Source of the DNA: Psammoneis japonica
Lineage: Eukaryota
Length of the DNA stretch: 64,000 nt
Reading direction: 5' to 3'
NCBI GenBank assembly: GCA_008632985.1
Contig: QPGO01000053.1
Location: 124,001-188,000, forward strand
How positions within the stretch are numbered: position 1 is the stretch's first letter; each line of letters begins with the position of its first letter. The translations under genes and the position numbers were made by a program. This document shows, piece by piece, positions 1-61,038 of the stretch. The notes under the pieces are model-generated. The model was not told the origin of the DNA, searched no databases, and worked only from the letters and a program-made list of their open reading frames with translations.

Positions 1-2662
1 CCATCCTGTGAACAACCACTGCATTGCCTTGCACCATGGATGGATCTTTGATTCCAACCACCCTTTTGCATTGCCAGCAAAGGACATCAAGTGTTTCAAT
101 TGTGGTGTCTTGGGAACGAGGAACATGAGGTGAAATGCGTGGTGAAAAAGCATCTGCAACAAGTGTTCATGGTGCACCAGTTCGAACTTCCCAGGGCGGT
201 GCAGCAGAAGTTGCGTGCAAAAAGGAAAGCTTTTGTGTTGGATGGTCAATCTAGTTGCACAACATTGCCATGTCATTTGTCAGAATTGTTGCTGTCACTG
301 TCCCCTGCTGTGCTCTCATCATCCTCCACAGTGTCTTCCATGTCGTCATTCTCTCCCCCCCACTCACCAGTTTCGATGTCTTGTTCCTCCACCTCGTCTG
401 AACAGTCCTCAAAACAATCCATTGCCTCCCGCTGTTGGATGGCATCCAGAATTCCTTCATGCTCATCATCACTCAAATGACGTGGATGAAGAAGTGAAGC
501 CTCATTCCTGTTGCACGTGCTTGGCAGTTCCAGATTGGCTGATGGTTCGTTGAGCTCAATGTTGGCAATTGCAATTTGCTTGAGCAACACTCTTGTCTTA
601 CATTCCTCAGCATCACCGGGAGTGCACCATCCTCTGGCCCATGGAACAGGGTTAAGATGCATTCCCTTGCAAACCCATTCACCGGCCTTGACAGTTGTGG
701 GTGGGTCAAACTCTTTCCAAACCTCGTCCTCCTGTGCTTTGTGGGGGAGTTCATCCCATTGCAGCAGATAGAATCCCTCCTCAGATTCACAAGACAAAGT
801 GGCATGGCTGTTTGGAACAATTTCCTTGGCCATTTCCTCAGCAAGGAAGTCCAACACAGATTTGTGAACCAACTGCACCTCGTTGGCATCACTCTCATCT
901 GTTTGAATCACCTGACACACTTGCCAATCGTTCAGTCCCTCAAAGATGGGCCACAGTTTGCAAGCTCGGTTGCCACCTGCACATCGTGGCTGCTCTGTTG
1001 GCTCAACATTTTTAACCCAAGGCCATTTCAGCTGATCCAGGCAGGCTTCACAAGCACAAGGAATTCTTCGCATCGCAACCCAACCAATGGGGAAAAGAAG
1101 TTCAAATCGGAAATGGTGCAAGGCTCCAATGCCACAATGGCGCATGCACACTTGCGCCAATCCAATCAACTTGACTTTGATTGAAGAGCCAAGAACTTCA
1201 TCAGCTTCCTGCAGACAATGCACCCTTTGCATTGACTTTCGAAGGGATTCCCTCTTGGCATGTTTTCTGTCACCAACTGCGCCGAAAGCATTCTTGTTCT
1301 TTGTGAGCATTTTGCAACATTCCTTTGCATGACTGTGTGCGGCTACAACACTGTTGTCATCCATGACCAAAGCTTCAGGTCTAATTTTCTTGTCCTTGTC
1401 ATTGACTCCTGCAACAGTTGTGGACTGCATTTCTCGATGTGCGAGTGATTTGATGCAGGCTCCAATGCCATCAACCTCTCCTTTGCCATGTCCAGTTGCT
1501 CCAATGGCACGGTCAAACACAATGTTGCATTTGTGCACAAAGACAGACAACAAGCACAGTGCCAAAGCACATCGGCATTGTTTGGCACAACCATCAGTGT
1601 GATCCCAAATCACAAGCCACACCTTGTGCAGGTTGCAGTTTTTTAACCAGGTGACAAACTTTTCCAAGTGAGCATTGGTGGTGGTGGCATCTTGCTTGGA
1701 AGAGTCAGAGAGATGCGCATGATGTGTTTTCTGAAGCTTGTTGTCAACCATTGCATCACAAACTCTTCCTTTGATTGACAATGTTTGGTTGTTGCCACAA
1801 TGGTTGCCCTGAACTTGTTTGTTGAACTCTGCCTTCTGATGCTCGGAGCAGTCATGAGACGTGAACAGGCTGTTGGGTGTTGACTCAAATGCTTTGCGAT
1901 GCATTTCCATGCAATGATTTTTCCCAAGAATGACCACGTGGGGAAGGTGGTGGCAGAGCTTCCCTAAACTTGGAATGCAGTGCTCTTTTGTAAAGACACC
2001 AACTGGTTTTCAGAACCTTGTCAACAAGGTCCTACGTTTCACCTTTGCGCCCTGGTTCCCATCTGGATCTGCCTCACAAACAGGACATGCTTCCATGTGC
2101 ACACCATGCTTGGAACAGCTTTTTACAGTCAAGTGACGTTGAAACAAAACTTGGGGCACACTGGGACTTTCATTCTGTTCCAACAATGGAGTTGGACAGG
2201 ATGGGCAATGCTCGCATTCACCCAAAACGCATTTCCAATGAGGATGATCCTGACCATTGACATCGCCACAAGTGATGGTTGCAACTGCATCTCGGGCTTT
2301 AGGATGAAGGTGATGGCCGTTGGGGCCAAACGCTTCCTCTTGACAGACACGCATTGTTTCCTCCAATTTGCCAAGGGCACTGTCATGGTTCTCAAGTTCT
2401 CAGGATCCTCACTCGCGAGCTTCAACCGATTTTGCTCCACCTCCATCTCTTTTAAAAGCTTCCTTCGAAACCTGTTCAATGCATCTTGTAGAAAATTGGC
2501 ATTGGTGCAATCGCTGCATTGACACATGCTGCGTTGACTTGCGCTCATTTTTCGACACTGCTTGGGAATCAAAAATCAAAACATCGTGTCACTGATGAGG
2601 GTCTTGCCATTGGCATCACGTGCATGTTCGAATCCGCCAACAGACACAGGCTTCAACATGTC

Positions 2663-3058
2663 GACGCGTTCCAGCCCTGGGTGGGAGCTCGTAGCACTGA
2701 CGTGTGACACAAATAATTTTTATCATCCGTCGTATGTTTTGCACGTACATTTCTACGTATAATATTTAAAAAAAATTGTCCAGACTCGCTGTTTTGCGAA
2801 GCCCCAGACGTTTTACATAACGAATTTATAGAAACAGTAATGCGCCAGTTACATTCTTCAATGTCTGAAGAATGTAACTGGCTAAGTAAAAAACGATGTA
2901 CTTCAATCATGTGCGAGTTTGTGCGTTCGCAAAATTGCCTCATTTTCTGTTGGCGAACATTGACATTCTAATTACTGTATAATTTTACTACGGAGCTCGC
3001 ACGTAGAATTCTACGGGCCCAATGTCACACGGATTCCCACCTACGTCTGGAACGCGTC
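2663..3058. mobile_element. 396-bp MITE, copy 1 (intact)
   Basis: Imperfect TIRs GACGCGTTCCAG-N5-GGTGGGA; 4-bp TSD TGTC (2659-2662, 3059-3062); second copy at 4923-5236 + 10082-10166 in the opposite orientation. Confidence 0.92.
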
Positions 3059-3759
3059 TGTCGTTGTGCAGCTCACGCATGGACACATTGCGCAACCATT
3101 TGTTCACTCGTTTCTTGTTTCCATCTTCATCTTTAATGAGAATCATGTCTCGTGTGTTGGGAGGCTGCACTGTGTCGGGATGATTTGACAACCAGTGCAC
3201 AAATGCCTTTCGGATCTCAGGGGGAACTTTGTGAGGACGCCGACGGGGTTGCACTGAAGACCACATGACATCGTCAGTGTTTAAAAGCAGTGCCTCTCTG
3301 GCAATCTTTCCCTTCTTCATTTGGCGATGAACAGTGCTCCGTCTCAGGCCAAGTGCCTTGGCGCAGTCATGGGAAGACAACTTTTCCTCTTCAGCAGATT
3401 TTTCTGGTGAGCCGGAGATTCCAGCTGCAAGAGCACGGACAAACGATTTTTTGTCGTCGGCGAGGTGTTGACCATTGCTGGTGTCGTTGGCACGTGCCCA
3501 CATTTTGCCCAACTGCTTGGCAATTTGCAAAGCCGCAGCATTTGTTTTCAGCAATGTCAAATTGCAAGCCTGAAGAAATGGGGCTGTTTCGGGAAAATGC
3601 AAAGCACACACAAACGCACAGATTTGTTGTTCTTGAGTGGCGGCGCAAGACAACACTCCTTCTCTCACTTTGACCGCTGCATGACAAAGTGCCTGTTGGG
3701 GATCTTTGTGGGTTGCTTTGAATGCATGAGGATCAAAAGTGGGGCAACCTTGGGAGGCA

Positions 3760-4190
3760 GTGAGGTTGACAGCAGTTGGGTTGGCCGAAGCGACAGAGGG
3801 AGTGACGGTGGCATTGTCAGAGTCAGGGTTGGAGGGAGTGGCGGCCGCTCCTGCAGTTTGCGTTTGGGAGGGGCCTGGAGGTCTTGGCAAGGACAACCCT
3901 GGACAATGAGTGGGGTGTTCCTTGGAGGGGTTTGGGTTGAAAGCAGCCAGGTCGGTGGGAGCAACGGAGGAAGTGACGGCGGCATTGTCAGAGTGAGGGT
4001 TGGAGGGAGTGGCGGCCACTCCTGCAGTGTGCATTTGGGAGGCGCCTGGCGGTCTTGGCAAGGACGACACTGGACAATGAGTGGAACAGGTGTTGGGTTG
4101 AAAGCAGCCAGGTTGGTGGGAGCAATGGAGGGAGTGACGGAGGCAGCAGAGCTCGGGTTGTTCGGATTGAAGGGAGTGGCTGCAGCTGCT
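3760..4190. repeat. ~160-170-bp tandem repeat (~2.4 copies) in the Pro/Ala/Thr-rich N-terminus of the Sola2-like transposase
   Basis: agtgacggNggca recurs at ~3800, ~3971 and ~4132; peptide SLPRPPGxSQxxTAGxAATPSNPxSDNA is repeated. Confidence 0.85.
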
Positions 4191-5236
4191 TCAGCTGCAG
4201 CAACGACATGGTCGGAGACCGTGTCGTGTGTTTCAAGTTCACGACGAGGCTTCTTGTTTTTGCTGTTGCCAGTCCCTGACTTGTGTCGATGGCCAACTCC
4301 ATTTTGCTTCTTCCTCTTGTTGCCCATGATGCACTGGAAATTTGATTGAAAGTGTGCATCGAGAGGGCTGGTGGATGAGACGGATGGCAAGTCGAGAGGA
4401 CACATTTTTTTGGCGTGCTCAATCAAATTAACTCCATTGTGTCTGTAGAAATGAGGCATGTTCGGACGTCAGTTGAGTTGAAGAAGACCAAACACACAAG
4501 CTCCAAAAAATGAAAAAGTGAGTGATCACGAGCATTTTTCACGCAGAGTGGGACACCAGCCGAAAATTACATTTGGCACAATTGACTCCCCAATTTTTGA
4601 TCATTTCGAAAATCAAAAGGTGAGTGTACACCCGAAAACACATGTAAAGTGTACACTCACCCTTCGATTTGGCAAAAAACGGATTTTGAAAAAGTCATTT
4701 GCACTGAACCTAAAAATGAATCGAACCCACGCGGAGCGCCTGGAGCTGGAACAGGCCTGACGACAGTTGCGTGACAAATTCCCAGAGTGCATTTTCATTG
4801 ACCAGGCATTGCTCAACAACCACCAAGAGTTTTGGAACAATCAACGGCAACAATGTTTTCTGCAGAATGAGCACTTTCTAATGGAGTTGCTTTTGTTTTC
4901 ACACCTCAAGCAAACTGCTGATGACGCGTTCCAGACGTAGGTGGGAATCCGTGTGACATTGGGCCCGTAGACTTCTACGTGCGAGCTCCGTAGTAAAATT
5001 ATACGGTAATTAAAATGTCAATGATCGCCAACAGAAAATGAGGCAATTTTGCGAACGCACAAACTCGCACATGATTGAAGTACATCATTTTTTACTTAGC
5101 CAGTTACATTCTTCAGACATTGAAGAATGTAACTGGCGCATTATTGTTTCTATAAATTTGTTATATAAAACGTCTGGGGCTTCGCAAAACAGCGAGTCTG
5201 GACAATTTTTTTAAACATCACACGTAGAAATCTACG

Positions 5237-8200
5237 CACCACGGTTCACCCATAACATTAGCGTCTGTAGAGCGATTTTTTTTGTACGAGCGTAGAATCA
5301 GTACCAAGATTTTGTGTAGGCTTGTGACGACACGACGTCGCACATTTTTTCCGCCTTTCGCTCATTTTTCGTTCGCATCCGAAACCTTCACCATGACGCT
5401 TCGAAGTGTTTCGACGGCCGTTGTAAGTGTTACATGTACAGGCGATCAGTTTATTGCATTATTGACATTCAAAGTCATACCTCACATTGCTTGTTTGTTT
5501 GAAATTGCTTGGAAAGTAAAGAAATTCAGTTGCCAACAACGGGGAAGTAATGTGCAAACAGTTTTAGGGTGCCAACAAGTGTCGCGGCGGGGTTTCGTGT
5601 CGGTTCATCTTGTTGAACCGAGAGCTGGAACATTGTTTCTTTCTCATAATCAAGGTGAGCTGCATGTGACCATTGCAATTCCAAGCAATGCCAAAATGTT
5701 GAAATGTTCTTTTCCATTTTCTCAATTGAAGTTTCTCCTCTCTTTTGCACTCTGAAGAAGAAGCAACAGCACTCGATTGATTTTTGCTTCTGTTGCGGCA
5801 GCAGGGTCTAATGCTGTCATGTGATGATGCAAGAAGGCGAGTGCGGAGGATCTGGGATGAATTGTTGATCCGCTGGTTTGTTGCTTGCTCCGTCAGACAT
5901 CAGTTGTTGCACCAGTCGATTCCACCCGCTGCGCCGAGGAGAAAAGGTGAGAAGTCTTGTCAGTTTTCGTTTCATTGCGGTGCAAAGCTCTTGAATTGTC
6001 GTTTGGACATGCAAGAATGCGCAAGTGTGGTTTGGAGTTTTGCCATTGACTGAATCTTGCTTTTTCTTTCGATGCTGTGCTCAGGTCGGTGTGAGCATCA
6101 AATGGAGCCCACCACGAATCCGGCACCTTCCCCCCCCTCGGCCATGTGGTAGACTTCCTTCCAGTCTAGACACATGAGGGTGCCATCAGGGGTCTGGAAG
6201 CATTCCCCTCCCTCCACCATCTCAGCCAATTGATTCGCCACAGCCACATCATCATTCGCTCTTGTTTGGCTTGAAACGTTGTAAGTGCCGCGCTTCTTCC
6301 CTGTTGCGCTCTTTTCAACAACGGCTTTTGCTTCTGACACGTCTTCTTTCAATCCATTGTGTGGTCTCTGGCACATTGTGTTGATTCGTTGTGTTGTGGA
6401 TGCCACAGACTTGAGCATGTGTCGCATTTCATTTGCGACTGGATGGGCATTCTCGAAGCCCTCCTTGGACAATCTGCCATGCATCCGCCACCGTTCCAAA
6501 AAGCCACACACGTGGGCTTCAAGATGATGAAGCTTGAGGAAGACATTGACCCCAGGGAAGCACTTGCGCCAATTCTTGGACAGTTGGAATAACGCATTCT
6601 TCAACTGCACAAGATCTCGGTCTGTTGGTTTCTTTTGGGATTTCAGAATCTTTGAAACTACGAGCAACGGCCGCGCAACGTTTCTAGAGCTTTCCATTGG
6701 CTCTTTTAAAAGATCATGTAAGTTTTGCTGTTGGTCATCACCTGCATGGCACTGCACCACATTCTCACAAATGGTGTCCCACTTTTCTAAAGATTTCATT
6801 CCGTCCGCGTGGCTCAACTCGCAATCGCTGTGCTCCGCACGAAACCTCACCTGCGCCAACACCTCAAAGCTCTTGTTGTGTGCAAACTCGCCTCTCCCTT
6901 TTGGCTTCTTGCCATTCTTGTCACGGCATGATTGCAGAGATGACAGAAATCGAGCAAGTCCCTCCTGTGACCCATGCTCCTGTCCCAAGTTCGTCATCTC
7001 GGCAGCATGATGGGCCACCCAAACCTTGGCATGCTGCAACTGTTCTTGGAGTTGTTGCACTCGTGCTTCATCTCGGTTGTCTCTTGCCATTTCCTTCTCA
7101 AGGTCCTTTTCTAATTTCCTTTGTGACCTGACATGCTGACTTGAATTCCTTCTTGCCTTCAGCCATCCTGGACACTTCTCCTTGATGCGATTCTCTGCCG
7201 CGGCATGCACACGGTCGACCTCAGCACTCCATGCTGAATTCTTTTCAATCAAACGCATGCGCTTCCTGATTTCATCGGCAAAATGAGTGAAACGCCTTGT
7301 GGCGCGTGCACGGGTGCCATCGTTTCCTTGTGAGGCGGTGCTCTCAAAAGGGGAGCCTTGTGAACGCTCCCGCATGCAAGCCTGTCTTCTTTGTTGGACG
7401 ACGGTAAGTTTCCGTTGAGGGTGCGTTCGGTCCACTTTTGATGAAGCAAATGATTGGCATGATCTCCTTCACGCACAGGGGCTGGTGTGCACTTGACTGT
7501 CGCCATCTCATTTTCGACATCCATTGCTTGAATCCATTTGGGGATGTGGCTTGTAAAGTTCACGTGATCTTCCATGCAAATCAAACAGTTGCATTGATTG
7601 GATGCAGTGCCTTGGCCAGAAACTGTCAGCGACTGCTTTGTGTCGTTGCTCGGAAACCCGATCATTTGCTGGAATGTCGCGTTGATGTTCCCATTGTCCC
7701 CCACTGCGAGTTTGCCTTCTTCGAACTCATGGCGACACACAATTGGCCCGGTGGCACCGACCGAAAGTCTGAACCCGTCACATTCACTGGAAGTTCCATT
7801 CGACTTTACCAACGTGGCGACGAGCTCAATCTTGTTCCCTGGAGCAGTCGCGCAGCTTGAGAGATCTGCCGTGTCAGGCTGTTCTTCATTTGCTTCTTGC
7901 TCTGCCGGCAAAGCGGCATCTGAAAAGGAGGCGTCGACTGCAATGCTGTCAAACGACACTGAATGTTCAGCATTGCTTGAAGAGGAAATGAACTTGACGG
8001 AAGCGCGTTTGCAACAGCTGCGTCCATTGCCGGCGATGAATGTGATCATGTGGAGGGCATCATCCAACAGATCTTGAAAGAATGCTGCCGTTGGAAACAT
8101 CACATCACAGGCAGAGGCTCGAAGGTTGAACTCGCATTCTGCTGCACACTCGCACTGGCACAGGGGCTGGCAATTTGTTCCTTTATTTCCGTCTTTGCGA

Positions 8201-10081
8201 TTTGCCACGCGAATCAAAAGGGTGAATGCATCACCTCCTTTGTCACTGCCAAATGCTGCCACGAGTTTGTTCGTTTTGGAACTGAAGGACTCGGATTTCT
8301 CGAATTTGCCAGCAATGTGGCACACCTCGGCAAGCTTCTCCAAAACACGTTGCGGTTGCTTTGTCCACCAAAATGCCCTCAGAGCTTTCTTGTTTCCGTT
8401 CTTGTCTATCATCATGGGTGTTAGAGTCACTCCATGCGCCAGACTGCCTTTTGATTCGCATCGTGAGATTTTTTTCTTCAGCTGGGTAGAGAATGTTCGA
8501 ATGTTGAGATGAGCCTGAATGAACCTGTCCAGCCGCAGCACTCCGTTTAGACTCATCTTGACACAGTCTCTAAGTGCTGCGACCCTTGGCTCATCGAGCA
8601 CGAGATCTTGTGTGCGAATTAGAGCACAATCGAAACTGCTTGCAACCAGTTTCAAAAGGGTTTGGTCCTCATCGCTGTTTTCTTGAAGCAGTTCAATTGT
8701 TTGGTTGACTGTCTTTGACCGATTCTTCGCATTTCGTGCACTTGTTTTCGCTGTGGGTTTTTGTGGTTTCGGCAACGCCGCATGCAGTCTCTCTGTTTTG
8801 CGGTTTGCCTTGTCCAGGACGGTCAACTTTGTGATTGCGCTTCCGGATTGATCAGACAATGATTGCAGCATTAGATGGGCAAGTGTCTGCAATTCTACAG
8901 ATGGCAGAAAATCCTTGTCATCACGCACTGTCGCAAGCAACTGTGTTGCTGCACTAGTTGCAGTCGGTCCACCTGTTTCAACAGATGACAACAGCATGCT
9001 GCAACCAACTCGAGAGATGCCTTTGAGACGAGGAAACTTTGTCGGGCCTTGCGCCACATTACAAGGGCTCGGTGTGACTGTTTGTTTCCTGCCAGCGTCT
9101 TCCTCGCTTGGATTGCAAGGGCTTGGCGTGACTGTGCGTTTCCTGCCAGCATCTTCCTTGCTCTGGAAGCTGCCATCCTGTGCGTCGCAACGGCTTGAGT
9201 CCATTTCTTCGGCGGTGGGGGCAACATTTGCAGCATCAAGGGCACCTTCTTCAGTGACAGCTGCTTTGGAATTCAAAGAATGACTGGAGAGGAAACTCAT
9301 TTGATCCTTGTTAGAAGCAATGACAAGATCACAAGGTGCACAGTTTGACGGTTTTGGGATGAGAGCATTGTCGTCCCTGGCTTCTAGCACGGTGACAAAG
9401 AATGCACCAGAATGCTCTCCAAGTTTGAGCATTGGAAATCTCTGAAGAAGCTTGTTGACATGACAAAACTTAGTGAACGCCAAGTCAAACGCATCCTCGG
9501 TGATGTCGAGCTGCTCCAGAAGAGTGACAGCTTTGGGGAAGCGCTTTCTTTGTTTCTTGTTGAGCTTGGGGGGCCACCACAGTTTCCCAGGACGAAACTC
9601 CATGTTCTTGATTTGTTTTTGCATGTGGGCAATGAAAGACTCCAACCGAGCCACCACTTCTGTGCCAAAACAAGCGACAAAAAAAGCGCATTGGTTGGCT
9701 GCAAGGAATGCATCGAAACAGGATTCCAAAAATGTGTCGGCGACAGCAACAACATTCCCGCTTCCAACCCTCGGCAAAGGCTGGCCATGTGAGCTCAACA
9801 CATGCCAAGGTTCGCATGTGGGGCCGTCATGCCGAGGGTGTTCATGCCTTTACTCGACATTGCGCAACGTTTTTCGCTCATCGTCGATGCGAAAAAAAAA
9901 AGTGTGTTGTGTTGCGATCTTTGCTTCTGGTGCATCACTCGTAGATTCTACGTTCTCCCTTCGACAGGTGTTTTTCGCTGAGAATTCCAAATTCCCAATG
10001 ATGGTCTGCATGTGCCACCAAATGTTTTTAGTCAAATGATTTGACGCCAATGCCACCTCACGCAGGAGTTGAACCGTGGTG
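5237..10081 (-). mobile_element. Chapaev/Transib-like (RAG1-type transposase) DNA transposon, 4845 bp
   Basis: 12-bp TIRs CACCACGGTTCA (5237-5248) / TGAACCGTGGTG (10070-10081). 4-bp TSD TACG (5233-5236) / TGCG (10082-10085). The empty site is visible in MITE copy 1. Confidence 0.85.
6098..9801 (-). pseudogene. RAG1/Transib/Chapaev-type DDE transposase (~1200 aa; frameshift near 7295)
   Basis: FGSDKGG (first D); NDTKQSLTVSGQGTASNQCNCLIC resembles RAG1 [40 protein letters not shown]...GRLSKEGFENAH resembles RAG1 HKTLAHV...GAWASEGNESGN. No Tyr in the 850-aa ORF. Confidence 0.8.
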
Positions 10082-10170
10082 TGCGTGCGAAACATGCGAT
10101 GGATGATAAAAATTGTTGTTGTCACACGTCAGTGCTACGAGCTCCCACCTGGGGCTGGAACGCGTCTGAT

Positions 10171-11586
10171 GTGGGGTGCCATTCAGACATGACCACAGGC
10201 TGGGAGGGGGGCACGCAAACATTTGATCACCTGCACATGTGTTGCCTTCTTGAAGGCACGCAATGGCATTCGTCAGAAAGTGCATGACACGGGTTTGAGC
10301 AAAGACAAGATCTGCATCAACCCCAAGCTTCTTTGTGTTCTTCACCGCCAGGAGTGGGGGCAGCTGCTCCGGTCTTGCGTGTCCATGCTCAATTGCTTCC
10401 CGGGTGCTGTTGAGGTTGTCATTCTCGTTTTCTAAGCCACTCAGGGCTGGAAGAGGTTCATGCCTCGTCTGAATGCAGAACCAATGCCCACTGAACATTG
10501 AATCAGCACATGATGCAAAAACTCATCCAAAGCGTTGCAAACACAAATCACGAATGCACTCATCCCGCTGGCTCCACTGATGCAGAGTCGGACCCTGTTC
10601 ATGTGCCGATGTGGGGCCAAAAGTTGCCAACGTCATGCCACATGGATCGCATTGAGTGAGCATCTTAATGGCATGGGTGTGATGATGCCCGTCCCAAACA
10701 GCTCACTGCATCATGTGTGCAAAAAGATGTCGGGCCCCATCATCTGCACTCGCTGGTCCAGATCCAAGATGGCAACACTGGCAGATGGATGTGTCAATGA
10801 AGGAGCATGTGTCTGGCTCCCTGCGTTTCGGTGCACCGACGTGGTTCCATGACACCTGTCGCCGCACTCCTCCTGCCGTGCATGTTTTCTTCTTCTTAAG
10901 ACAGGCACAGATTTTGTCACGAAACATGGGAAAGCATGGAACCCACATGGCAATTGCCTCTGGCCCAATCAAGTGATGGAATTTCACATCAAGACACATC
11001 ACAAGAAATCGGCATCCTTTTTCCCACCTGTTCTCGGAACCCCAAAATCCATCGAATCGGCAAGCTTCTTGTGAGCCACAGTTGTGGACATTTTGGAAAG
11101 CATGCAGATGAGAAGCTCCTCGGAGGTAAAATGGCAGAAACTCCCATTGTGCTGCTGACTGTTTTGAGGAACCCAAACATCCTTGTCCAATTCAAAAATT
11201 TGCAACAAAGCCCGGAGTTCACCCTTTGAGAGCCGTGTCTCTTGGTCTGATCGATCGTCACATTTCAAGAAATCAATTGATGTGTCCTGATTTTTGGGAA
11301 TAAGATGACCAGACATTGCACCTTGTTCATCCAGATCTGGCAACGCCTGATCAAGCTCCACACACACAATTGCGAGATCAAAGCGCCTGCATGCTTTCAC
11401 AATGTGCTGGAGGGCGAGCAGGATTAAAGCCCTGATTGACAATGCTGCCAATGACTCTGCATTTTCTTTTGTCACATTCAATGCCACCTTTCCCATCCCA
11501 AGCTGCATCTCATAACTTTTCAGGTGCAAAACAAGACCCTTCTGCACCTGCTTTGCACACATGCACTCTTTGACCGTGGACGACAT
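10171..11586 (-). pseudogene. PIF/Harbinger (HARBI1-like, DDE_Tnp_4) nuclease
   Basis: Motifs SEELLICMLSK, SFIDTS, WDGHHHTHAIK..PCGM..FGP, ADS, REAIEHG and LTNAIACLQEGN..F.CPPPSL, with frameshifts and in-frame TGA stops. Confidence 0.75.
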
Positions 11587-12624
11587 CGTCGCCCATCTCT
11601 TTCGTGGCAAACTCCGCCTGGAAAGTTTGCGCCTCCCCACCTGTGACAGGATTGCACTGAACCACACTCACGCAACATCCATCATACAACATCTGTCATC
11701 CACAGTCCACACCTCGTTTCTTTGGTGATTTTGAGCTGCAGATCGATTGTTTGTTGGTTTGCCGTGCTGCGCTGCACCTTCGAGCCCCCACACTCGGCTT
11801 CTCCTTTTTGCGGCAAGGCTGGCACAAGCAAAAACTACAAAGCAAATGTGGCGCATCCCACTTTTCATGTTCATGATGGATGCGACTGAACAAGAACGAC
11901 CTCGACGGAATTCCCAACCATCCGGCAATCGTGTTTTTATCATGGCTGTCGTGCTTCTCGCCCCAAACCAAACAGCGCCGTTTGGCCCCGTGCTGTTCGT
12001 CGCGGCACATTGGAAACCATCTGCTTCAACACGTCATCATCAGAAATGCCACAAATGATTGCGCAATTGAACTGTCAGGGTTCTCAGGCCGTCAAATGCC
12101 ACTCTGGGGGAAGTCTCCAGCCAGCTGCTGGCTGAAGAATTTTGTGTAGAAATTGCACTGAAAGAGTCTGTCAATCTGTGCGTTTGGGGGTTTTGGTGAA
12201 CGCTGGACAGACTCGTCTTCTTTTGCATACACGTAAAAATTGTACTTGAAAAACCCCCAACCCGAACCCCATGCAAGACTGACCCAAGAAGCGCGGGAAA
12301 GTTCTTGGCGAACAATCACCGTCGAAAGATAGAGCGAAGATTGAGAATGAAAAGAATGTTATTTGACGGGACTGCTTCGCGAAGGAGATGGCAGTCGAGC
12401 AACACTGACGGATCATTTCATGATAAGAAGCGCCTTTTATTCTTGCCTACTGTACGTTGTTACATTGTGTTCAGTCTCCATCGCACTGTGCGTCTGTGTT
12501 TTGTTGCATCTCCCTCCGCAAGCAACTTACGGTGCCATCTTACCAACCCCCCTCGATTCGTTGTTTTGTTCTTTCGTAGAAACGTGTCAATCCACTCAAA
12601 ACTCGACCATCAAGGAGAAAAACC

Positions 12625-17419: not shown

Positions 17420-20028
17420 CTATGTTTGTTCTTTGCTCGGGGCACCACCTTCTGGTCTCATTTCTGTAGGACGAGGATTCTCCTTGATGGCTGCGCTGTC
17501 TTCTTCCTCTGCCACACTGCCTCGTGTCCTTGCTCTCGCCATTCGGTCTCTCATTCGATCATAGCGAGCTTGATCCTTTTTCGACACGGACGGCATGACA
17601 TGATCAAAAGCGTATGCAAAGTGACGAGCTGAAATGTGCAACGTAGCCTCGCTGCTGCATTCTCCGAGATGCGATTCCTTGAGAACCGCCAATCCAGCCT
17701 CTCGCAGCAACGCTGCACAATCCGCCCCGCTGTATCCCTCGGCTCGAGCGCTACGACCGATATCATCCAAGTGCACATCCGGACCAAGCTTGACTTTGGT
17801 AGCCAGTGCCTTGAGAATCGCCACGCGGTCGTCAGCGCTGGGTACTGGAACATAGAGCAGCTTGTCGAGACGCCCGGGTCTCATCATGGCTGGATCAATC
17901 AATTCTGGTCGATTGGTGGCCGCAATCACAAAAACACTGCGACGACTGTCTAGTCCATCCATTTCCGTCAAGAGCTGATTCACCACTCGTTCACTGACAC
18001 CCCCACCGCCACTATCGCTGCCGCGTTTGGGACAAAGAGAATCCAATTCATCAAAAAAGACAATGCACGGACTCGAGGATCGGGCGCGCTCAAAGACAAC
18101 ACGGACAGCGCGCTCACTCTCGCCCACGTACTTGTCCAGCAGCTCGGGTCCCTTGACACTGATAAAGTTGGCACCACTTTCATTGGCAATCGCCTTGGCC
18201 AAGAGCTCTTTCCACAACCGGGTGGTCCGTACAACATGACACCGGCAGGCAGGGGCAAACCAAGCGCTTGAAACTTTTCGGGATTTTGAATGGGTTCCAA
18301 GACACTGAGTGACAGTTCTTGTCGAACCGCGGCAAGGGCGCCAATGTCATCCCACGTAACATCGGGCACGGTAGCAAATCCCTCGCGCTTGCTGGAAGGC
18401 TGTACAAGAGGAACAGCGTTCAAAAAGTCAGTCATTGTTACGTAGAGAGGATCCATCTGTGCGGGTGTCAGTGGAGTTATGGATGCAATGTCGGTCGGAG
18501 GAGCTTGAACGGATTGTCCGTCTTTTGTTTCCTGAATTTCGGTCGACTTTGCCTCGTTGGAGTTGTCGGGTGAAGAATCAGCAACAATTCCATTGGTCGC
18601 TGGCATTATGTCTACACGATTCGTCAAGACATTTTCAAAGATTCGATTAATCGCCAACACTGCTGCTTCCTTTGTCAGACTCTTCATATCGGCTCCGACA
18701 AAGCCCGGCGTCTTTTTGGCAAGCAGTTTGAAATCAACTCCAGGCGCCAGTCTCATTTGCGTCGTCATTGTCTGAAGAATGGATTCTCGTGCGTCTTGAT
18801 CCGGAATACCGAGCAAAATTTCCTTATCAAATCGGCCGGCTCGTCGCAATGCTGGATCCATGGCATCGGGTCGGTTGGTGGCACCCAGCACCATGACGGG
18901 AGCATGGTTGCGGTTGTACTGTGGATCAATTGAATCCAGGCATGTTAACAATTGCGCCACCATGCGTTTCTCCATTCCCCTCGAAGCGTCGCCACCCCGT
19001 TTGGGTGCAATGGCGTCCAACTCATCCATGAAAATGAGCGCGGGTGCCGTGTCGGATGCGGCACGAAACAAGTCTCGAATCCGGCTTTCTGACTCTCCAG
19101 ACATGCTCGACACCAATTCGGGTGCCGAGACACAAAAGTACGGCAGATTCAATTGTCCTGCAATGGCATTGGCCAAATGAGTCTTGCCACATCCCGGTGG
19201 TCCTCGCAACAAGACACCTCGAGGAGGATCAATTCCAAGGTGCTGGTACAATTCTGGCCGAACAAGCGGATATTCAATCAATTGTCGAATTTGCGTCAGT
19301 ATATCCGTCAGTCCACCTAAATCGGCATAGCGCTCCTTGGGACGTGGTACAGGCACTGCATGACTGCTTTCACTGGAAGGCATAGGTGTCAGTCCATTCT
19401 GACTTGTTGATCGACCACCTAATCCTGATTTCTTTCGTTTTAGCTTTCTCGATATTCTTTGTTCAGAAGCTTCTTTTTCTTGCTTTGCTTTCACATCTTG
19501 TTTGTATTTATCCCGCAAACCTGCATTCAGCATGCTTCCACTACTTTGACTATCAATCAGTTCTTGCCTGACGGCATCATGTTCTTGTGCTTCTTGTTCA
19601 AACGCAGCCTCCTCTTGATCCATCGCTTCTTCCTCTTGAAGAGCTCGTTTGGACGACAAGAGTTGCGGCGGCTTTGCTTGCGGAGATTTTGTTGTTGAAG
19701 CAGATGTAATTACAACCAACGCTCGTTGTACATTCCGTTTCAACCACGCTGGATCTTTTCGTTGGTATTCTCGATGCTGTGTCTTTAAACAATTCACCAC
19801 ATAATCGACCGACGGCGGAGGTTCTTGGTCTACTACAACGAGTCCCAACTTTCGTACCAAGTGCAGCAATTTTGAATCCACTTGTGATGGTGGCGGTACC
19901 GGCGAAGAAGAACGTGACGTTGACGTCTTGGGAGGAGGACTGTGAATAAAGCCAGATGGGCGTTTCTTTGCCATGGTGGTGGTTGCTGTTGTCATTTCTC
20001 GCTTGCGTTTATTATTCTGGATGGCCAT
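17420..20028 (-). CDS. NVL: Nuclear VCP-like (NVL2/Rix7) double AAA+ ATPase, ribosome biogenesis; 1-nt frameshift near 18205
   Basis: Two AAA modules (GPPGCGKT/DELD, twice); N-terminal REYQRK motif; VQPSSKREGFATVPDVTW; SVKGPELLDKYVGESE. Confidence 0.9.
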
Positions 20029-20298
20029 TTTCTTTTGCAGATTTTCATGTCGCCGATTTTTTGAGTGGTGGCCAGAAGAATCATCGGACTGAATGGTGTG
20101 CGGACGGACCTCTGCAGGATCGTATGAGTCTTTCTCGTATGTAGAACGCTACGTTGACACCTACTGCCACGTAAATTTCAACTTCTACACATTTTTCAGT
20201 ACAGTTCCACGTACCCGTAGAAGACATACTGAACGTGCTGTCAACGCGAACGGATCGCAAAATTTTTTAGATTGCGAAGAACAGATTGAAGATTGACC

Positions 20299-25189: not shown

Positions 25190-25405
25190 TTTCTATCTTA
25201 TCGTTGCTTTAATGGCCGTTGTTTCACCAACGAGTGATGAACATTGGAAGAAACAATAAAAAGTGATTCATTCCTCGATTATCCCATTCAATGAATGATG
25301 TGTCATGTTGTTGTGTTTGCCTCAATGCCGACGCGAAAACGCCAATGACGTCATAGCGTGAATGACGTCAAGCAAAGCACAGGGCCCTGCATAAAATAAA
25401 AAAGA

Positions 25406-25454
25406 CTCTCTCTCCTCCTCCTCCTCCTCCTCCTCCTCCTCCTCTCTCTCTCTC
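25406..25454. repeat. (CT)n/(CCT)n microsatellite
   Basis: Directly visible. Confidence 0.95.
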
Positions 25455-25489
25455 AGAGAGTGCTCGAGAAGAAGCCTCCAGTAGAGAAG

Positions 25490-28400
25490 AGAGAGGATGT
25501 CCCTGCCTGCAATGCATCAAATGCTCGCCTTGGGCCTTGGGTTCGTCGCTGGCTTTGGAATCAAAGTTCCCTCCATCACTCTGCCTGAAGAACGCAAAAC
25601 CACAATGAGAAAACAAATGACAAGCTGAAACGAATGCCGCCGAAAGAGCGGGCAGTGCAAAGGCTCTTTCCAGCTCAACAAAAAATGTCCCAGTTGGGGA
25701 AAAATTTTTTGAGTTGTTCCTCTGCCTCTCTCTGCAGTGGATGATGGAGATGTGCTGACGAGGGGATGTGGTTGGTTGCCAAGAGAGGGAAACATCATCC
25801 TGCCCCCCCCCCCCCACGCTGCTCACCCACAAAGGCCAAAGCACCTTTCAAAGCTGAAAAAACCTGGGACAAATCAGCAAACAACTGGCAACTCTGGGGT
25901 GACAGACTTGCACTTGTCTGTCATTCCAAGCAGTTTTGGCAGGGTCTGCAGCTGCCCAAGTGGCTCAAACAATGCCTTTGTTGAAGGCTCGACAGCACTG
26001 CCAAAAGTGTCAAGCAATCACCCACAGGACATGTTGGCAGAAGCTTCTTCAACTTCTCTCCATCACTGCTAACAACCTTTTGTGAACAGAAGCAAGTTGT
26101 GGGATGTTTTGTGTGTGTGCAACACTGCTGCTCACAACAAGCAACACAAATTTTTTAATCTGTTGCACAGAAAATTGTGCTTCAATGACAGTGTGCTGTG
26201 CACTTTGCAGCTGTCTTCTTGATGCCTGGGGTCTTCAAGGCATGTCAAGAACAATTTGCCTCTTGGGGGGTTGCTTCAACAATGGTGTGCATGCACAAAA
26301 GAAAAAATGAGTTTGTCTCAAAAATGTGTGGCCAACCCACTTGCGCTCTTCTTGTCAACAAGTTTTTGGGGCTGTTTCATGCTGACAGTCATTCTTGCAT
26401 TGCTCTGTTCTGGCCATCAAGCACTTGTGTGTGATTTCTGTGCCACCCTGCACAATTCACCATGCACCTGGCAAAACAGGGCAAGCTCTCTCTCTCTCTC
26501 TTGCTGACCTCTGAGGCAACCCTTGCTGATGGTTGCACTGCAAGAAGGGCTGCACTGTTGCTTGTGTGCCATGCCTGTTGTGCGAATGTCAGAGTGCAAG
26601 AACACCAAATGTGGTGGACTCATCTCTTTCCTGTGCCAAGCCCATCAACAGATGTGTGGAATGAAGAAGCGCTGCTTTTGTTTCTTTTTGGTTCTCTCAG
26701 CAGCATCACAAAGGATGAGTGTGGCAATGGCAGTGACACCACAGAAATCGTGGCCCTGTCTTGCTGGTGCAGGCTTTTTCAGGTCAACAAGTCGGTGCAA
26801 AAGATCACATGAGAGATTTGTTGCACAATGTGCAGATGTTTTCACAGCCACAAGCTGAGCAACTCTGGTCAACAAGAGTGCGAGTGTGGCACTTGCACAA
26901 GGTGGCTCAAAAATGTCTTTCAAGTGAGCCAACCTGTCAAAAACCAAGTGCTTTGTTTGTTCCTTTTTAGCAGGGGATCCCATGTGTGCCATTGTGCATC
27001 CTGATCTGACTCTGGCAGTGCTGGCAAGTGATCCCACAATGAGGTGCAAATTTGACCATTCCACACAAAAGGCAATTTGGGCATTGGATTTCTAACCTGT
27101 TCATTCTAAGGCATTTGTTCAAAAGTGCCTCAGCTGGCACATCATGAACTGCACAAAATTGCAGACAATTCTGAAAGCAACAGTTGTGCCCACCAAAGAA
27201 AAAAATGTTGGAACATCTGGGTCAGAGGTGGTTTTTGCATGGCAGATGGACAATGTTGCAGTGGAAGATCATGCACTCGCTGGTGATTGTGGACAATGTG
27301 GTGAATTTGTGTTTGCAACTTGGTTTGAGTTGCGAGTCCAGTGCTCACTTTTTGGTGTCTGCACCTGGTTGACATGGCAACAGTGTTTGGCATCAGCATC
27401 AGCCATGAGTTTGCAAGCCACATTGTGAGAGTTTGGGGTCAGCGAGACTGGACAGCCCACACACTGGTCGGCAAGCTGCAGCACAGAAGCTGAAAAGTCA
27501 CAGTGCGTTGCTCAAAGGTGTGGTGTCATCAAAAGGCTGGGAAGTCAACAGGAGTCCACAAAGAAAAAGGCCAGAAAGTCCGTGGGAATCCAAAGGAGGT
27601 GCACCTCACATTGGTGGACTGCAGCAAACAAGCCAGCTTGATGAGGGCTGCAAAGATGTGATCTCTGAAAGGGGGCCTTTCTGTTGAAGAAGCTGTCAAG
27701 GGTCTGTTGAAAGAGGGTGTGGGGCAAGGTTGCATCAGGGTTGGCAAGACAGAGTGTGCAGCTGTTGGCAAGCCATGAAGCTCCAACACAAGTCCCAGAA
27801 AATGTGGGCAAGGACACAGCTGAGTGCAGAAACATGAAGACAGTGTGTGTGTGACACCATTGCTGAGTCAGGATGACACATGCAGATGGTGCATTGCATT
27901 GAAACCACAAGGAAGATCAGCAAGCATGTTGAAAGAATGCAGGTGCCAGCATCTCAGAGGCAGGAGAGCATGCCAAGAGATCAGACTGCAGCCTGTTGGG
28001 AGACGCCACATCAGAGAAGGACGAGGCAATCTGGGGCAAGCAACGTGACCACTGTGCAAAACAGATCAAGCTCAATGAGAAGCAAGCAGCGCTGATGGCA
28101 TGACTGGCTGGTCACCATGAAACACACACCCAATCATGTGGTGAAACATGTCTGCCACTGGTGCAGGCCCTGCCAACAGCAATCATTTGGTGCCAAAATT
28201 TGGGTTGTGGGATTGAACTGTGTGTCAAAAAATGGATTTGAACATTTGTCCAGTGAGGCCACCTTGTTGGGCAAAATTGCATGTAAATGCACACATTTGT
28301 GCAAATGGGTGCATGCAACTTGTGCAGAATGTGCCAGCCTTGGGTTCTTAGAAATGCTCTGCCATTTTTCTGCACCCCCCTCACAAAAAACCCATGCACT

Positions 28401-29810
28401 GTCTTGCACAACAGTGCAAAATGCACTGTGAAGATTGCGCTGTTGCTTGTGTGCAATGCTTGCTCTTTTGTGCAAATGCCAGAATGCAAGGAGACGCCAA
28501 CAAAGGGGGGGCAGCCATGGGCTCCTGAACTGGCCAGTCAAGAACCATTTGCCTTTGATCCCATGCAGCATGCCATGTGCCCACACCCTTGTCCAACTCT
28601 GCTCCAGCACATGCAATCTCAAGGTGGGATGCAAGTTGACACTTTTGCACAAAGAGCACTTTGGGGCTGCTCTGAACACACACAAAGCAAACTTCATGTG
28701 AGTGCTTTGTGCACACTGGATTTTTTGGCGTGTGTTCATTCTCAGGCATTTTTTGTCCAAAGCTCCAACAGGTGGCACATTGTGAACAGAACAAGAAAAG
28801 CACTGCAAATGTGTGTGTCCATTCTAAAAACAGTGCGTGTGTGTGTCCACTCTAAAAACAGTGCTTGTGCCCACAAAAAAGAGAGAGTGACCACATGCAA
28901 GAAGCAGGGAACAAGTGTTGGCTCTGAGCCCTCCCTCCAGCTCTGCACAGGTGTCTGAAAAGAGCCTGAGCAACTGGCAGAAGAAAAAGTTTTTTGCACC
29001 AAGGCACCCAACAGAGGAGAGAAGGTGTGGCCTTGAAGTGTGCAAATGCGCAAATGTCATGCACCTCCAAACTGCATGTTGAAGCAAGTGCGCACAAAAA
29101 CCCAACCTGACCTGCAACTGTGAGAATCATGCTCAATGTTGCAGCAGGTGTGATGGCCAAGCTAAAGCCAAACAACAGAGCCACAGCTTGCTTTGAACTC
29201 TCCCCTTTTCCTTGCCTGCAATGTGGTGCAAGAGCAAGCAGAAATCAAAAATGCAAAAACAAACTGGCTGATTGGCAGCAAAAGCAATGAAAAATGTGAG
29301 CCAGTGACAACAAAAATGCAAAGCTTTTTGCTGCTTTGGCTTGCAATGCATGTTCCAGAAAATGCACACTGCGCTTGCCAACAAGCACAACGAAGCCAAA
29401 GCACTTGTGAGCAGCCAGCAGCGGCTGTTGCAGAGAAGCACCAAAACAGCTTCGTTGCCTCACTTTGTGGAAAGAGCTCATAAGAGCTTTGGCCTGCTGG
29501 CACCTTTTGTGCAAAATGTGCATGCCATGGCTGTTGCAAAAACATGTTCACGTGCTCTGGTGCAAAACAGAGCCCTCCCAATGTCCAAACTTGCCAAGTC
29601 CGCAGAACACCCCAGCATGCTTTTGCACGAAGAAAAGATCTTCCTCAGAAAGGTCTTTCCCTTTTCCCTCCTCTGCACACTGCCAAGACTCCCATGCGAT
29701 GTTGGGCACTCTCATCAGACTGACAATCCAGCCAGGGTGCTGTTGCACAACATCGCCACAGCAGCTGGGGTCCGGGTAGGTGGCAAGACGAAACAGGCAG
29801 AAAGTCACAG
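25490..29810. mobile_element. Heavily degenerated repeat/transposon relic of unknown family
   Basis: About 4.3 kb with only ~11 TA dinucleotides by eye, few CG, and excess CA/TG. No coherent ORF. Same composition as the identified transposons at 1-12 kb. Confidence 0.6.
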
Positions 29811-60455: not shown

Positions 60456-61038
60456 TGTAATTATAAGTGTTCGAATAAAATATATGAACAGGTCGATCTA
60501 ATAGGAATCTTTCGAAAATGACCCGTGACGTAAAAAGCATAAATTACTTATAGACGTCCGTAGAATCTACACGTTTTTGTACCAAAACTGTTATCTTCTC
60601 AAAACTTTCGCAAAAAAGGACATTACTGCTAATCAGGTGTATTTCTGCAAATATGTTGTTCTAAAATACGCATGATCAGTTTGCAGTAAAGTCCATTTTT
60701 CGCAAAGTTAAAATTTACTAAGGACAGACAGACAGACTTTTCAATAATTATCTTGGTACTGTTCTACACATTTCTACGTAAATGACTCTACGGCGCGAAA
60801 GATTGCTATTGCCCCCAACGGACGAGCTCACAAAATTGCGCAACCACAGACCACAAGACGGCACATGACGACTCTCTGTCCTAGGGAGCAGGAGTACTCC
60901 TCAACGCACCAAAAGCGCAAAAGAGCACAAAGGCAACGTGGTTCCACTGAGATGGAATAGAGCATTGTCTGTAACACCCCTGTTTTGATTCCTGATTTTC
61001 AACACAACCGCGTTTTTTAGCAGACGCTCCAAAAAAGA

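Follow-up and report, generated by a model that had tools for sequence, protein, structure and literature searches.

TpA depletion in the transposon bodies of a diatom contig and the polarity of the differences between two copies of a miniature inverted-repeat element

A nest of mobile elements occupies positions 1-12,100 of the 64,000-nucleotide stretch of Psammoneis japonica DNA analyzed here (contig QPGO01000053.1, assembly GCA_008632985.1, forward-strand positions 124,001 to 188,000), which we call the window; it is eukaryotic and gene-dense, with about 48% G+C. The nest holds two copies of a miniature inverted-repeat transposable element (MITE), of which the second is split by a larger transposon, the inner element. 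The two copies differ at several sites where one reads TA and the other CA or TG, and the target-site duplication (TSD) of the inner element is itself mismatched by one letter. Can the direction of mutation be read from such a locus, and what has been changing the DNA? An earlier note on this stretch had answered that TA is ancestral, that both strands are hit and that clustering of the changes suggests a processive agent. We find the underlying phenomenon to be genuine and striking; it adds a case to a kind that was described only very recently. The MITE pair alone proves little. We consider it probable that a transposon-directed, TpA-specific hypermutation of T:A to C:G marks the transposon bodies, and that the MITE pair mixes ordinary C-to-T decay with TAY-to-TGY changes (Y, pyrimidine; R, purine) in the flank of the inner element.

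Loss of TpA from the transposon bodies

Five segments of transposon body, together 14,507 bp, have an observed-to-expected ratio (o/e) of 0.03-0.17 for TpA and of 1.3-2.0 for CpA and TpG (Table 1). They contain 69 TpA dinucleotides vs. 924 expected by base composition and 508 expected at the host ratio; about 90% of TpA has been lost, to CpA and TpG on both strands. The borders of the depleted blocks are sharp at 500-bp resolution, the host DNA is spared, and the depletion is equal across all three codon phases. The transposon bodies show a TpA-to-TpG/CpA change that is confined to mobile sequence.

The direction of this change was established directly from the transposon proteins, by counts of aligned cells, which share window sites and are hence not independent. 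When the transposase of the inner element was aligned with 13 relatives, the 254 cells opposite Tyr contained Cys in 40, His in 37, Phe in 33 and Tyr in 10 cases; the control, relative vs. relative, gave 21, 62, 130 and 344, respectively, in 1,005 cells. For the protein of an unrelated open reading frame (ORF) at 273-2009, aligned with 22 relatives, the 347 cells opposite Tyr held Cys 107, His 98, Phe 42 and Tyr 19 times, compared with 12, 95, 158 and 1,002 times in the 1,664 cells of its control. As TAY became TGY and CAY about equally (Cys:His 40:37 and 107:98), both strands are affected; CpA and TpG are both enriched in the transposon bodies. The claim of an ancestral TA and of two affected strands therefore holds for the genome generally, on evidence that the earlier note had not used (the TpA loss and the Tyr-to-Cys/His replacements in two unrelated proteins), and is not supported for the three-site cluster (see below).

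The sequence context could be observed equally directly in strand-symmetrised tetranucleotide densities, transposon bodies vs. host. RTAY is reduced to 1% of its host density (0.07 vs. 10.93 per kb), RTAR/YTAY to 10% (1.00 vs. 9.59 per kb) and YTAR to 44% (2.69 vs. 6.18 per kb). Gains were found for RCAY/RTGY (ratio 1.82) and RCAR/YTGY (1.46), while RTGR/YCAY, at only 1.18, is not a gain class. This order of loss and these gain classes indicate that the changed base is the A of 5'-TAY-3', equivalent to the T of 5'-RTA-3' when the opposite strand is read. The surviving TpA dinucleotides have a 5' pyrimidine on 78% of strands vs. 43% in the host.

Changes of this kind make no stop codons and remove TAA and TAG, which accounts for the long open frames of the depleted DNA. 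The block at 25401-29700 contains 27 overlapping stop-to-stop frames of at least 90 aa, distributed over all six phases, and only TGA stops remain in it. The transposase gene of the inner element appears in the window as two overlapping frames; one additional A after position 7289, present in all of the read depth of sequencing run X1 (163.4/163.4, 2 contigs), merges them into one open frame of 1,250 aa with 2 Tyr, 45 His and 41 Cys. At 7289-7290 the assembly probably has a homopolymer error, which causes the frameshift seen in the window. ORF 273-2009 has 1 Tyr in 579 codons; its protein has 22 relatives at 30-38% identity and belongs to no Pfam family. In all, Tyr makes up 4 of the approximately 2,300 residues encoded by the four transposon ORFs, compared with 0.8-4.9% Tyr in host frames and 1.3-4.1% in the relatives.

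An exhaustive HMMER search identified 151 relatives of the transposase at E ≤ 1e-3; another homologue search with the 866-aa frame gave no match, and a search of viral contigs with the single protein gave 0 confirmed relatives. Scans against Pfam returned only a borderline match to DUF1280 (up to 26.6 bits vs. a cut-off of 25) and one weak match to RAG1. DUF1280 was matched at E 0.01 or better in 10 of the 16 relatives scanned, and a profile search of PDB sequences gave nothing significant, the best being RAG1 at E = 0.38.

Could the poverty in TpA be other than mutational, the result of selection against UpA in transcripts, of codon usage or of the composition of a donor genome? Avoidance of UpA is known in viruses, the host genes are moderately TpA-poor too (0.55), and the depletion of the inner element is strongest over its transcribed gene body and weaker in its termini. 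Yet the most depleted of the segments (0.04) is the gene-less 4.3-kb block at 25401-29700, and the depletion is equal in the three codon phases. In two unrelated families, whose relatives elsewhere have normal Tyr contents, the residues that took the place of conserved Tyr are, moreover, precisely those that one step would give, Cys and His, and the hierarchy of contexts, with gains only in the RCA/TGY classes, fits a single-base enzymatic rule. For these reasons we regard a non-mutational origin as highly improbable. An artefact, in which base modification in transposon DNA was miscalled during sequencing or polishing, has even less to recommend it and is scarcely credible. The homopolymer difference at 7289 does suggest a long-read assembly, but run X1 supplies independent contigs (depth 58-64) that differ from the inner element by 0-2 letters over 383-1,115 bp, and the Tyr-to-Cys/His pattern and the open frames are coherent at the codon level.

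The termini of the inner element are less depleted than its body, with a TpA o/e of 0.53 at 5237-5650 and 0.24 at 9850-10081. We also observed that these non-coding termini keep CpG (o/e 1.26-1.37), unlike the gene body that they enclose. The termini may be protected or selected; alternatively, the transcription unit may set the course of the process.

Anatomy of the nest and the family state of the MITE

The anatomy of the nest was established directly (Table 1). Copy 1 of the MITE is embedded in a TpA-free transposon body. The element is 396 bp long and non-coding, with 24-nt terminal inverted repeats (TIRs; 88% complementary), perfect 4-bp TSDs and a high copy number, its depth of 36,533 in the reads of run X1 vs. 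about 60 for unique sequence corresponding to about 600 copies, and to more at its left end. The inner element has flush and perfect TIRs of 12 nt, CACCACGGTTCA...TGAACCGTGGTG, and its ends read CACCACGG...CCGTGGTG, that is, 5'-CAC...GTG-3'. Such ends together with a 3-4-bp TSD are hallmarks of Chapaev/CMC transposons according to PMC4079192. Relative to the uninterrupted copy 1, copy 2 has 4 extra bases at the inner element with one mismatch, a duplication of the size expected for that group. A 2-bp TSD (CG), which would remove the mismatch, was judged less likely, as it offsets the flush perfect TIRs by 2 nt. The depth over the inner element (83-456 in run X1) suggests few copies, about 2-8 in the genome. 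The element spanning 273-4470, which copy 1 interrupts, has a depth of about 30-50 copies, and read contigs that join 2662 to 3070 and 2639 to 3059 represent copies of it that lack the MITE. The MITE was thus inserted twice into older transposon bodies, and the CAC...GTG element later entered copy 2.

Table 1. Features of the window, with TpA and CpG ratios, read-based letters and flank changes (. in the strand column, no strand assigned).
Feature	Position	Strand	TpA o/e	CpG o/e	Remarks
TpA-free transposon body	1-2662	.	0.08	0.39	CpA/TpG o/e 1.7-1.8; ORF 273-2009 (-)
The same body beyond MITE copy 1	3059-4470	.	0.05	0.62	ORF 2988-4190 (-)
MITE copy 1	2663-3058	-	0.87		396 bp, uninterrupted; TSD GACA at 2659-2662 and 3059-3062
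The two longer MITE pieces	2663-3058 and 4923-5236		0.82-0.87	1.5	
Site compared with reads	2740				window T, reads C; 24,996.3/28,231.1 depth units, 89%, 33 contigs
Empty target site of inner element, in MITE copy 1	2744-2747	-			reads TACG
Site compared with reads	2759				window A, reads G; 11,555.7/11,628.8 depth units, 99%, 27 contigs
Site compared with reads	2761				window A, reads G; 11,140.5/11,628.8 depth units, 96%, 26 contigs
MITE copy 2, left piece	4923-5236	+			96% identity to copy 1; TSD TGAT at 4919-4922
CAtCACA in copy 2	5216-5221	+			faces TAtTATA of copy 1 (2764-2759) in the pair alignment
Left TSD of inner element	5233-5236				TACG; last four bases of the left MITE piece
Inner TIR transposon	5237-10081	-			4,845 bp; splits MITE copy 2
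TIRs of inner element	5237-5248 and 10070-10081				12 nt
Body of inner element	5651-9849		0.03-0.15	0.65-0.78	
Transposase gene	6098-9849	-			two overlapping frames, 7249-9849 (866 aa) and 6098-7468 (456 aa)
MITE copy 2, right piece	10082-10166	+			90% identity to copy 1; TSD TGAT at 10167-10170
Right TSD of inner element	10082-10085				TGCG
Flank change in TSD	10083	+			TAC to TGC; 2 bp from right end of inner element
Flank change	10096	+			TAC to TGC; 15 bp from right end of inner element
Flank change	10115	+			TAT to TGT; 34 bp from right end of inner element
TpA-free repeat, right of MITE copy 2	10167-12100	.	0.08	0.61	
TpA-free block	25401-29700		0.04	0.16	CpA/TpG o/e 1.7-2.0; no recognisable gene
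Host	47.6 kb		0.54-0.55	about 0.98	

Over the 396 columns of the full comparison, the two MITE copies differ 21 times, by 15 transitions, 5 transversions and 1 indel. Every difference listed by the earlier note is present in the sequence. The cluster aaTAtTATAcg vs. aaCAtCACAcg corresponds to 2764, 2761 and 2759 in copy 1 and to 5216, 5219 and 5221 in copy 2; cgTAtg/cgCAtg is 2733 vs. 10096, aaTAat/aaCAat is 2714 vs. 10115, and cgTAc/cgCAc is the TSD site, 2746 vs. 10083. At one TIR dinucleotide, where the opposite TIR has TA, copy 1 reads CA (2679/2678) and copy 2 reads TG (10150/10151). The list in that note was selective, however: it omits a site of opposite sense (TG at 2816 in copy 1, TA at 5165 in copy 2) and five CpG-type differences (2976, 2894, 2822, 2740 and 2729). 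Five sites of the pair have TA in copy 1 and CA or TG in copy 2 (2764, 2761, 2759, 2733 and 2714). The resulting asymmetry of direction for the pair, 5:1, is not significant (two-sided binomial p = 0.22), and there is no significant excess of the TA/CA/TG class, which makes up 6 of the 15 transitions vs. 28% of sites (p = 0.22).

As an outgroup for the pair we used reads of the same organism, that is, contigs from uninterrupted MITE copies aligned on copy 1. Unique contigs of run X1 (depth 58-64) showed 0-2 letter differences from the window per 383-1,115 bp. The differences considered below are the best 40 of 714, all with a share of the other letter of at least 0.82. On the MITE strand the family state is CA at 2759 and 2761, determined over about 190 copy-equivalents, and CG at 2740. 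This majority at the two cluster sites, observed directly, is the very MITE consensus with CA/TG that the earlier note had named as the result that would refute it. The residue at 2759, about 73 depth units, is about one copy's worth and indicates that this T is private to copy 1. The 2 contigs of run X2 have the same majority letters as run X1, which are found again at 2740, 2759, 2761 and 2819 in one 152-bp contig that another study obtained from a sediment metagenome. The sediment metagenome runs X5 and X7 gave only 3 and 1 contigs of less than 95% likeness and are uninformative on habitat or strain; scans of metagenomes for further MITE copies with two degenerate patterns returned 0 stretches each. 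At 2764, 2746, 2733 and 2714 no majority against copy 1 was seen among the differences considered (share of at least 0.82).

Given the CA majority at 2759 and 2761, the clustered T's of copy 1 are private or rare; copy 1 gained them or carries a rare variant, and a reading of the three sites as T-to-C changes of copy 2 is not supported. Nor is processive action supported: three substitutions within 6 columns, given 20 in 396 columns, show no significant clustering (p = 0.31), and the middle site of the cluster (tTAt to tCAc) lies outside the RTA/TAY context. Could TA nevertheless be ancestral at every site of the pair, cluster included, with copy 2 converted by a processive enzyme? Copy 1 has TA at 5 of the 6 sites of this type; these five are all found no more than 35 bp from the inner element, and a process that destroys TA does exist in this genome. 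Against this stand C in 99% and 96% of the copy-equivalents at 2759 and 2761, respectively. A parallel conversion of all those copies is impossible while each of them kept about 25 other TpA (MITE TpA o/e about 0.8), and the context of the middle site and the lack of clustering point the same way. We consider the original reading in its full form very unlikely. A spectrum cannot be polarised from a pair of copies and a single TSD; at the most striking sites, the call was reversed once the family majority was consulted.

Compared with the family majority, copy 1 shows three C:G-to-T:A changes within 22 bp (2740, 2759 and 2761), possibly with a fourth at 2764; one is at CpG, the others are at CpA, and both strands are involved. 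Over its 396 bp, copy 1 has no other majority difference among those considered except at 2819, which is common to copy 2. The local cluster at 2740-2764 consists of ordinary deamination-type changes.

Several other repeats were seen beside these elements. The palindrome GTAGA-N(1-3)-TCTAC occurs five times vs. 0.06 expected, at 3003-3014, 4967-4978, 5224-5235, 9941-9951 and 60560-60570. Each MITE copy contains it, as do the subterminal DNA at the right of the inner element and, near 60,560, a TA-rich stretch that resembles another small element. It may be that the MITE belongs to the inner element's family as a non-autonomous partner; 4-bp duplications are made by both. Just left of MITE copy 2, a depth of about 12,800 over 4536-4802 marks a further high-copy short repeat, which contains a 22-nt inverted repeat (4610-4631 and 4649-4670). 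Long tandem arrays of 33, 24 and 21 bp at 36400-37800, G+C-rich and probably a repetitive coding region, are unrelated to the TpA question.

The mismatched TSD and the right flank of the inner element

The TSD of the inner element reads TACG on the left, as does the empty target site in copy 1, and TGCG on the right. Since the duplicates are identical at insertion and the family site is TACG, the A-to-G at 10083 occurred after insertion. A single such change is the simplest account of the mismatch, and here the earlier note, which had placed a TA-to-TG change in the right TSD after insertion, was borne out. In the right MITE piece, copy 2 carries three changes, all TAY to TGY on the same strand. 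Of the TpA sites, 3 of 5 in the right piece read TG in copy 2, whereas none of the 24 in the left piece does (Fisher p = 0.003; p = 0.034 if the three-site cluster is counted as the earlier note had it). The substitutions of the pair are also unevenly placed, with 12 of the 20 in the last 103 columns, which adjoin the inner element, and ten in a 60-column span (p = 0.006). From these few events we infer that the three flank changes would be a post-insertion spill-over of the TpA process at the promoter-side end of the inner element.

In the explanation that we propose, the differences of the MITE pair would be of two kinds. The first would be ordinary C-to-T decay, comprising at least five CpG sites in either copy and the three CpA-to-TpA changes that are private to or rare in copy 1. 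The second would be A-to-G at 5'-TAY-3' in copy 2, no farther than 34 bp from the right end of the inner element and once in the TSD, with the direction and context of the TpA-specific hypermutation in the transposon bodies, whose accumulated traces dominate the window. There, TpA was lost in the order RTAY, then RTAR/YTAY, then YTAR, and Tyr codons (TAY) were turned into Cys (TGY) or His (CAY). As for the chemistry, we infer that adenine in DNA is most likely deaminated to inosine at TAY of either strand, with silenced transposon bodies as the target and with MITEs and transposon termini largely spared; the same mechanism has been proposed for Bigelowiella natans (see below).

A simpler account would assign all differences of the MITE pair, including the TSD mismatch, to background CpG decay and random transitions that have nothing to do with the TpA loss. 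It agrees with the spectrum and direction of the pair, neither of which is significant, with the presence of at least five CpG-type sites in both copies, with the near-normal TpA that the MITE copies retain and with the left end of the inner element, where no spill-over is seen. However, the three right-flank changes share type, strand and context, and their TAY-to-TGY signature is the one obtained independently from the 14.5 kb of transposon bodies; the excess of TG among the TpA sites of the right piece and the concentration of substitutions beside the inner element also speak against it. We regard this background account as rather unlikely, although it is to be taken seriously.

Several observations weigh against the spill-over of a TpA-directed process at this locus. 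There are only three flank events, and each could be an ordinary transition. Direct support for the polarity at 10096 and 10115 comes from one loose end of a third MITE copy, which reads ...CATA at the site matching 2733, so that this polarity is weakly founded. On the left side, the terminal 414 bp of the inner element keep their TpA (o/e 0.53) and no TA has been lost from the MITE flank; because neither is depleted, the process is not simply element-wide. A majority rule can itself mislead under a directed process, and among the differences considered, a CA/TG majority with TA in the window (5) is not rarer than the reverse (3). Finally, the 13 majority differences listed between copies of the inner element include none of the TA type. 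It is therefore probable that the inner element came to this locus with most of its TpA already lost in its lineage. A corresponding spill-over on the left was considered and rejected, as the family majority at the cluster sites is CA and the left 414 bp of the element are undepleted.

The proposal can be carried further, to a defence that resembles repeat-induced point mutation (RIP) with the opposite polarity. The adenine at 5'-TAY-3' would be deaminated on either strand in silenced transposon bodies until TpA and all Tyr codons were erased, the frames staying open, and the process would still be active here, spilling at least 34 bp past the promoter-side end of the inner element into its TSD and the MITE flank. 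This extended version we advance tentatively, as a possibility about which we are nearly evenly divided and slightly inclined to doubt. If it is true, the TSD mismatch is a dated, in-place event.

Known systems and the significance of TpA loss in a diatom

The closest parallel is the work on Bigelowiella natans described in a preprint (Mettrop et al. 2026, bioRxiv 10.64898/2026.01.13.699255). Mutation-accumulation lines of this chlorarachniophyte showed an approximately 1000-fold higher mutation rate in an integrated giant virus and virophage, and 230 of the 231 changes in viral regions were A-to-G or T-to-C, all on TpA. TpA-poor coding sequences of that genome were enriched for DDE and reverse-transcriptase domains, and a DNA adenine deaminase of the ADAT2-like (ADAT2/TadA-like) type was proposed there as the candidate agent. 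In both systems only TpA is targeted and becomes TpG or CpA depending on the strand. Foreign or mobile DNA alone is affected (the rest of the B. natans genome having a normal spectrum), and the footprint consists of TpA depletion with CpA/TpG enrichment.

There are also differences from what is reported for B. natans. The host of the present process is a diatom, a stramenopile, and not a rhizarian; the best named relatives of the host AAA ATPase at 17980-20148 (minus strand) of the window are from diatoms (Cylindrotheca, Nitzschia, Bacillariaceae), at 52-61% identity. The targets are transposons rather than insertions of giant viruses and virophages, and the depletion is far deeper, with a TpA o/e of 0.03-0.17 vs. 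0.45 in the nucleocytoplasmic large DNA virus (NCLDV) region of B. natans. A TAY/RTA rule is visible here, whereas the words 'context', 'trinucleotide' and 'flanking' do not occur in the main text of the preprint, nor does 'diatom'. The rate was measured in lines there, while our data represent a sequence footprint with one event, the TSD mismatch, dated to after insertion. The literature that we searched for TpA loss in diatom transposons yielded no report.

RIP, known from ascomycete fungi, resembles the process described here in being restricted to transitions, specific for a dinucleotide and active on both strands of transposons, with host genes untouched. Its polarity is the opposite, as RIP turns CpA into TpA and enriches TpA, while the inner element has a TpA/ApT of 0.18 and, with a (CpA+TpG)/(ApC+GpT) of 1.64, lacks the composition of a RIP-affected sequence. 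Changes in the direction of RIP number three and are found only in MITE copy 1. RIP also creates stop codons, which the present process cannot do, and the frames stay open. Hyperediting of the ADAR type, from A to I in double-stranded RNA derived from repeats, occurs in animals and likewise reads as A to G with a 5' U/T preference on both strands. It acts on RNA and is not inherited, and ADARs are animal proteins; in contrast, the change described here is in the genomic DNA of cut-and-paste transposons, without an RNA intermediate.

Decay of methylated CpG is the third system to be compared. Methylation of diatom transposons is described in PMC9998398. The transposon bodies of the window have a CpG o/e of 0.16-0.78 vs. 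0.98 in the host, and at least five differences of the MITE pair are of the CpG-to-TpG/CpA type. Such decay runs alongside the TpA process and accounts for neither the TpA loss nor the Tyr-to-Cys/His replacements.

In the literature that we searched, a single preprint of 2026, on one chlorarachniophyte, describes a TpA-directed hypermutation that acts on foreign DNA. With a much deeper footprint of this kind in transposons of a diatom, the process would no longer be limited to a single lineage, and the TAY/RTA rule would constrain the enzyme. There are practical consequences as well: gene callers will predict tyrosine-free proteins from transposons that keep long frames while mutated throughout, and consensus-based ageing of repeats is misleading in TpA-free blocks. 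The question could also be taken up in a group for which genetic tools exist and in which transposons are known to be methylated. If the RIP-like defence of opposite polarity that we propose is true, TpA hypermutation would be a defence common to lineages of stramenopiles, alveolates and Rhizaria (SAR), and not an oddity of one chlorarachniophyte.

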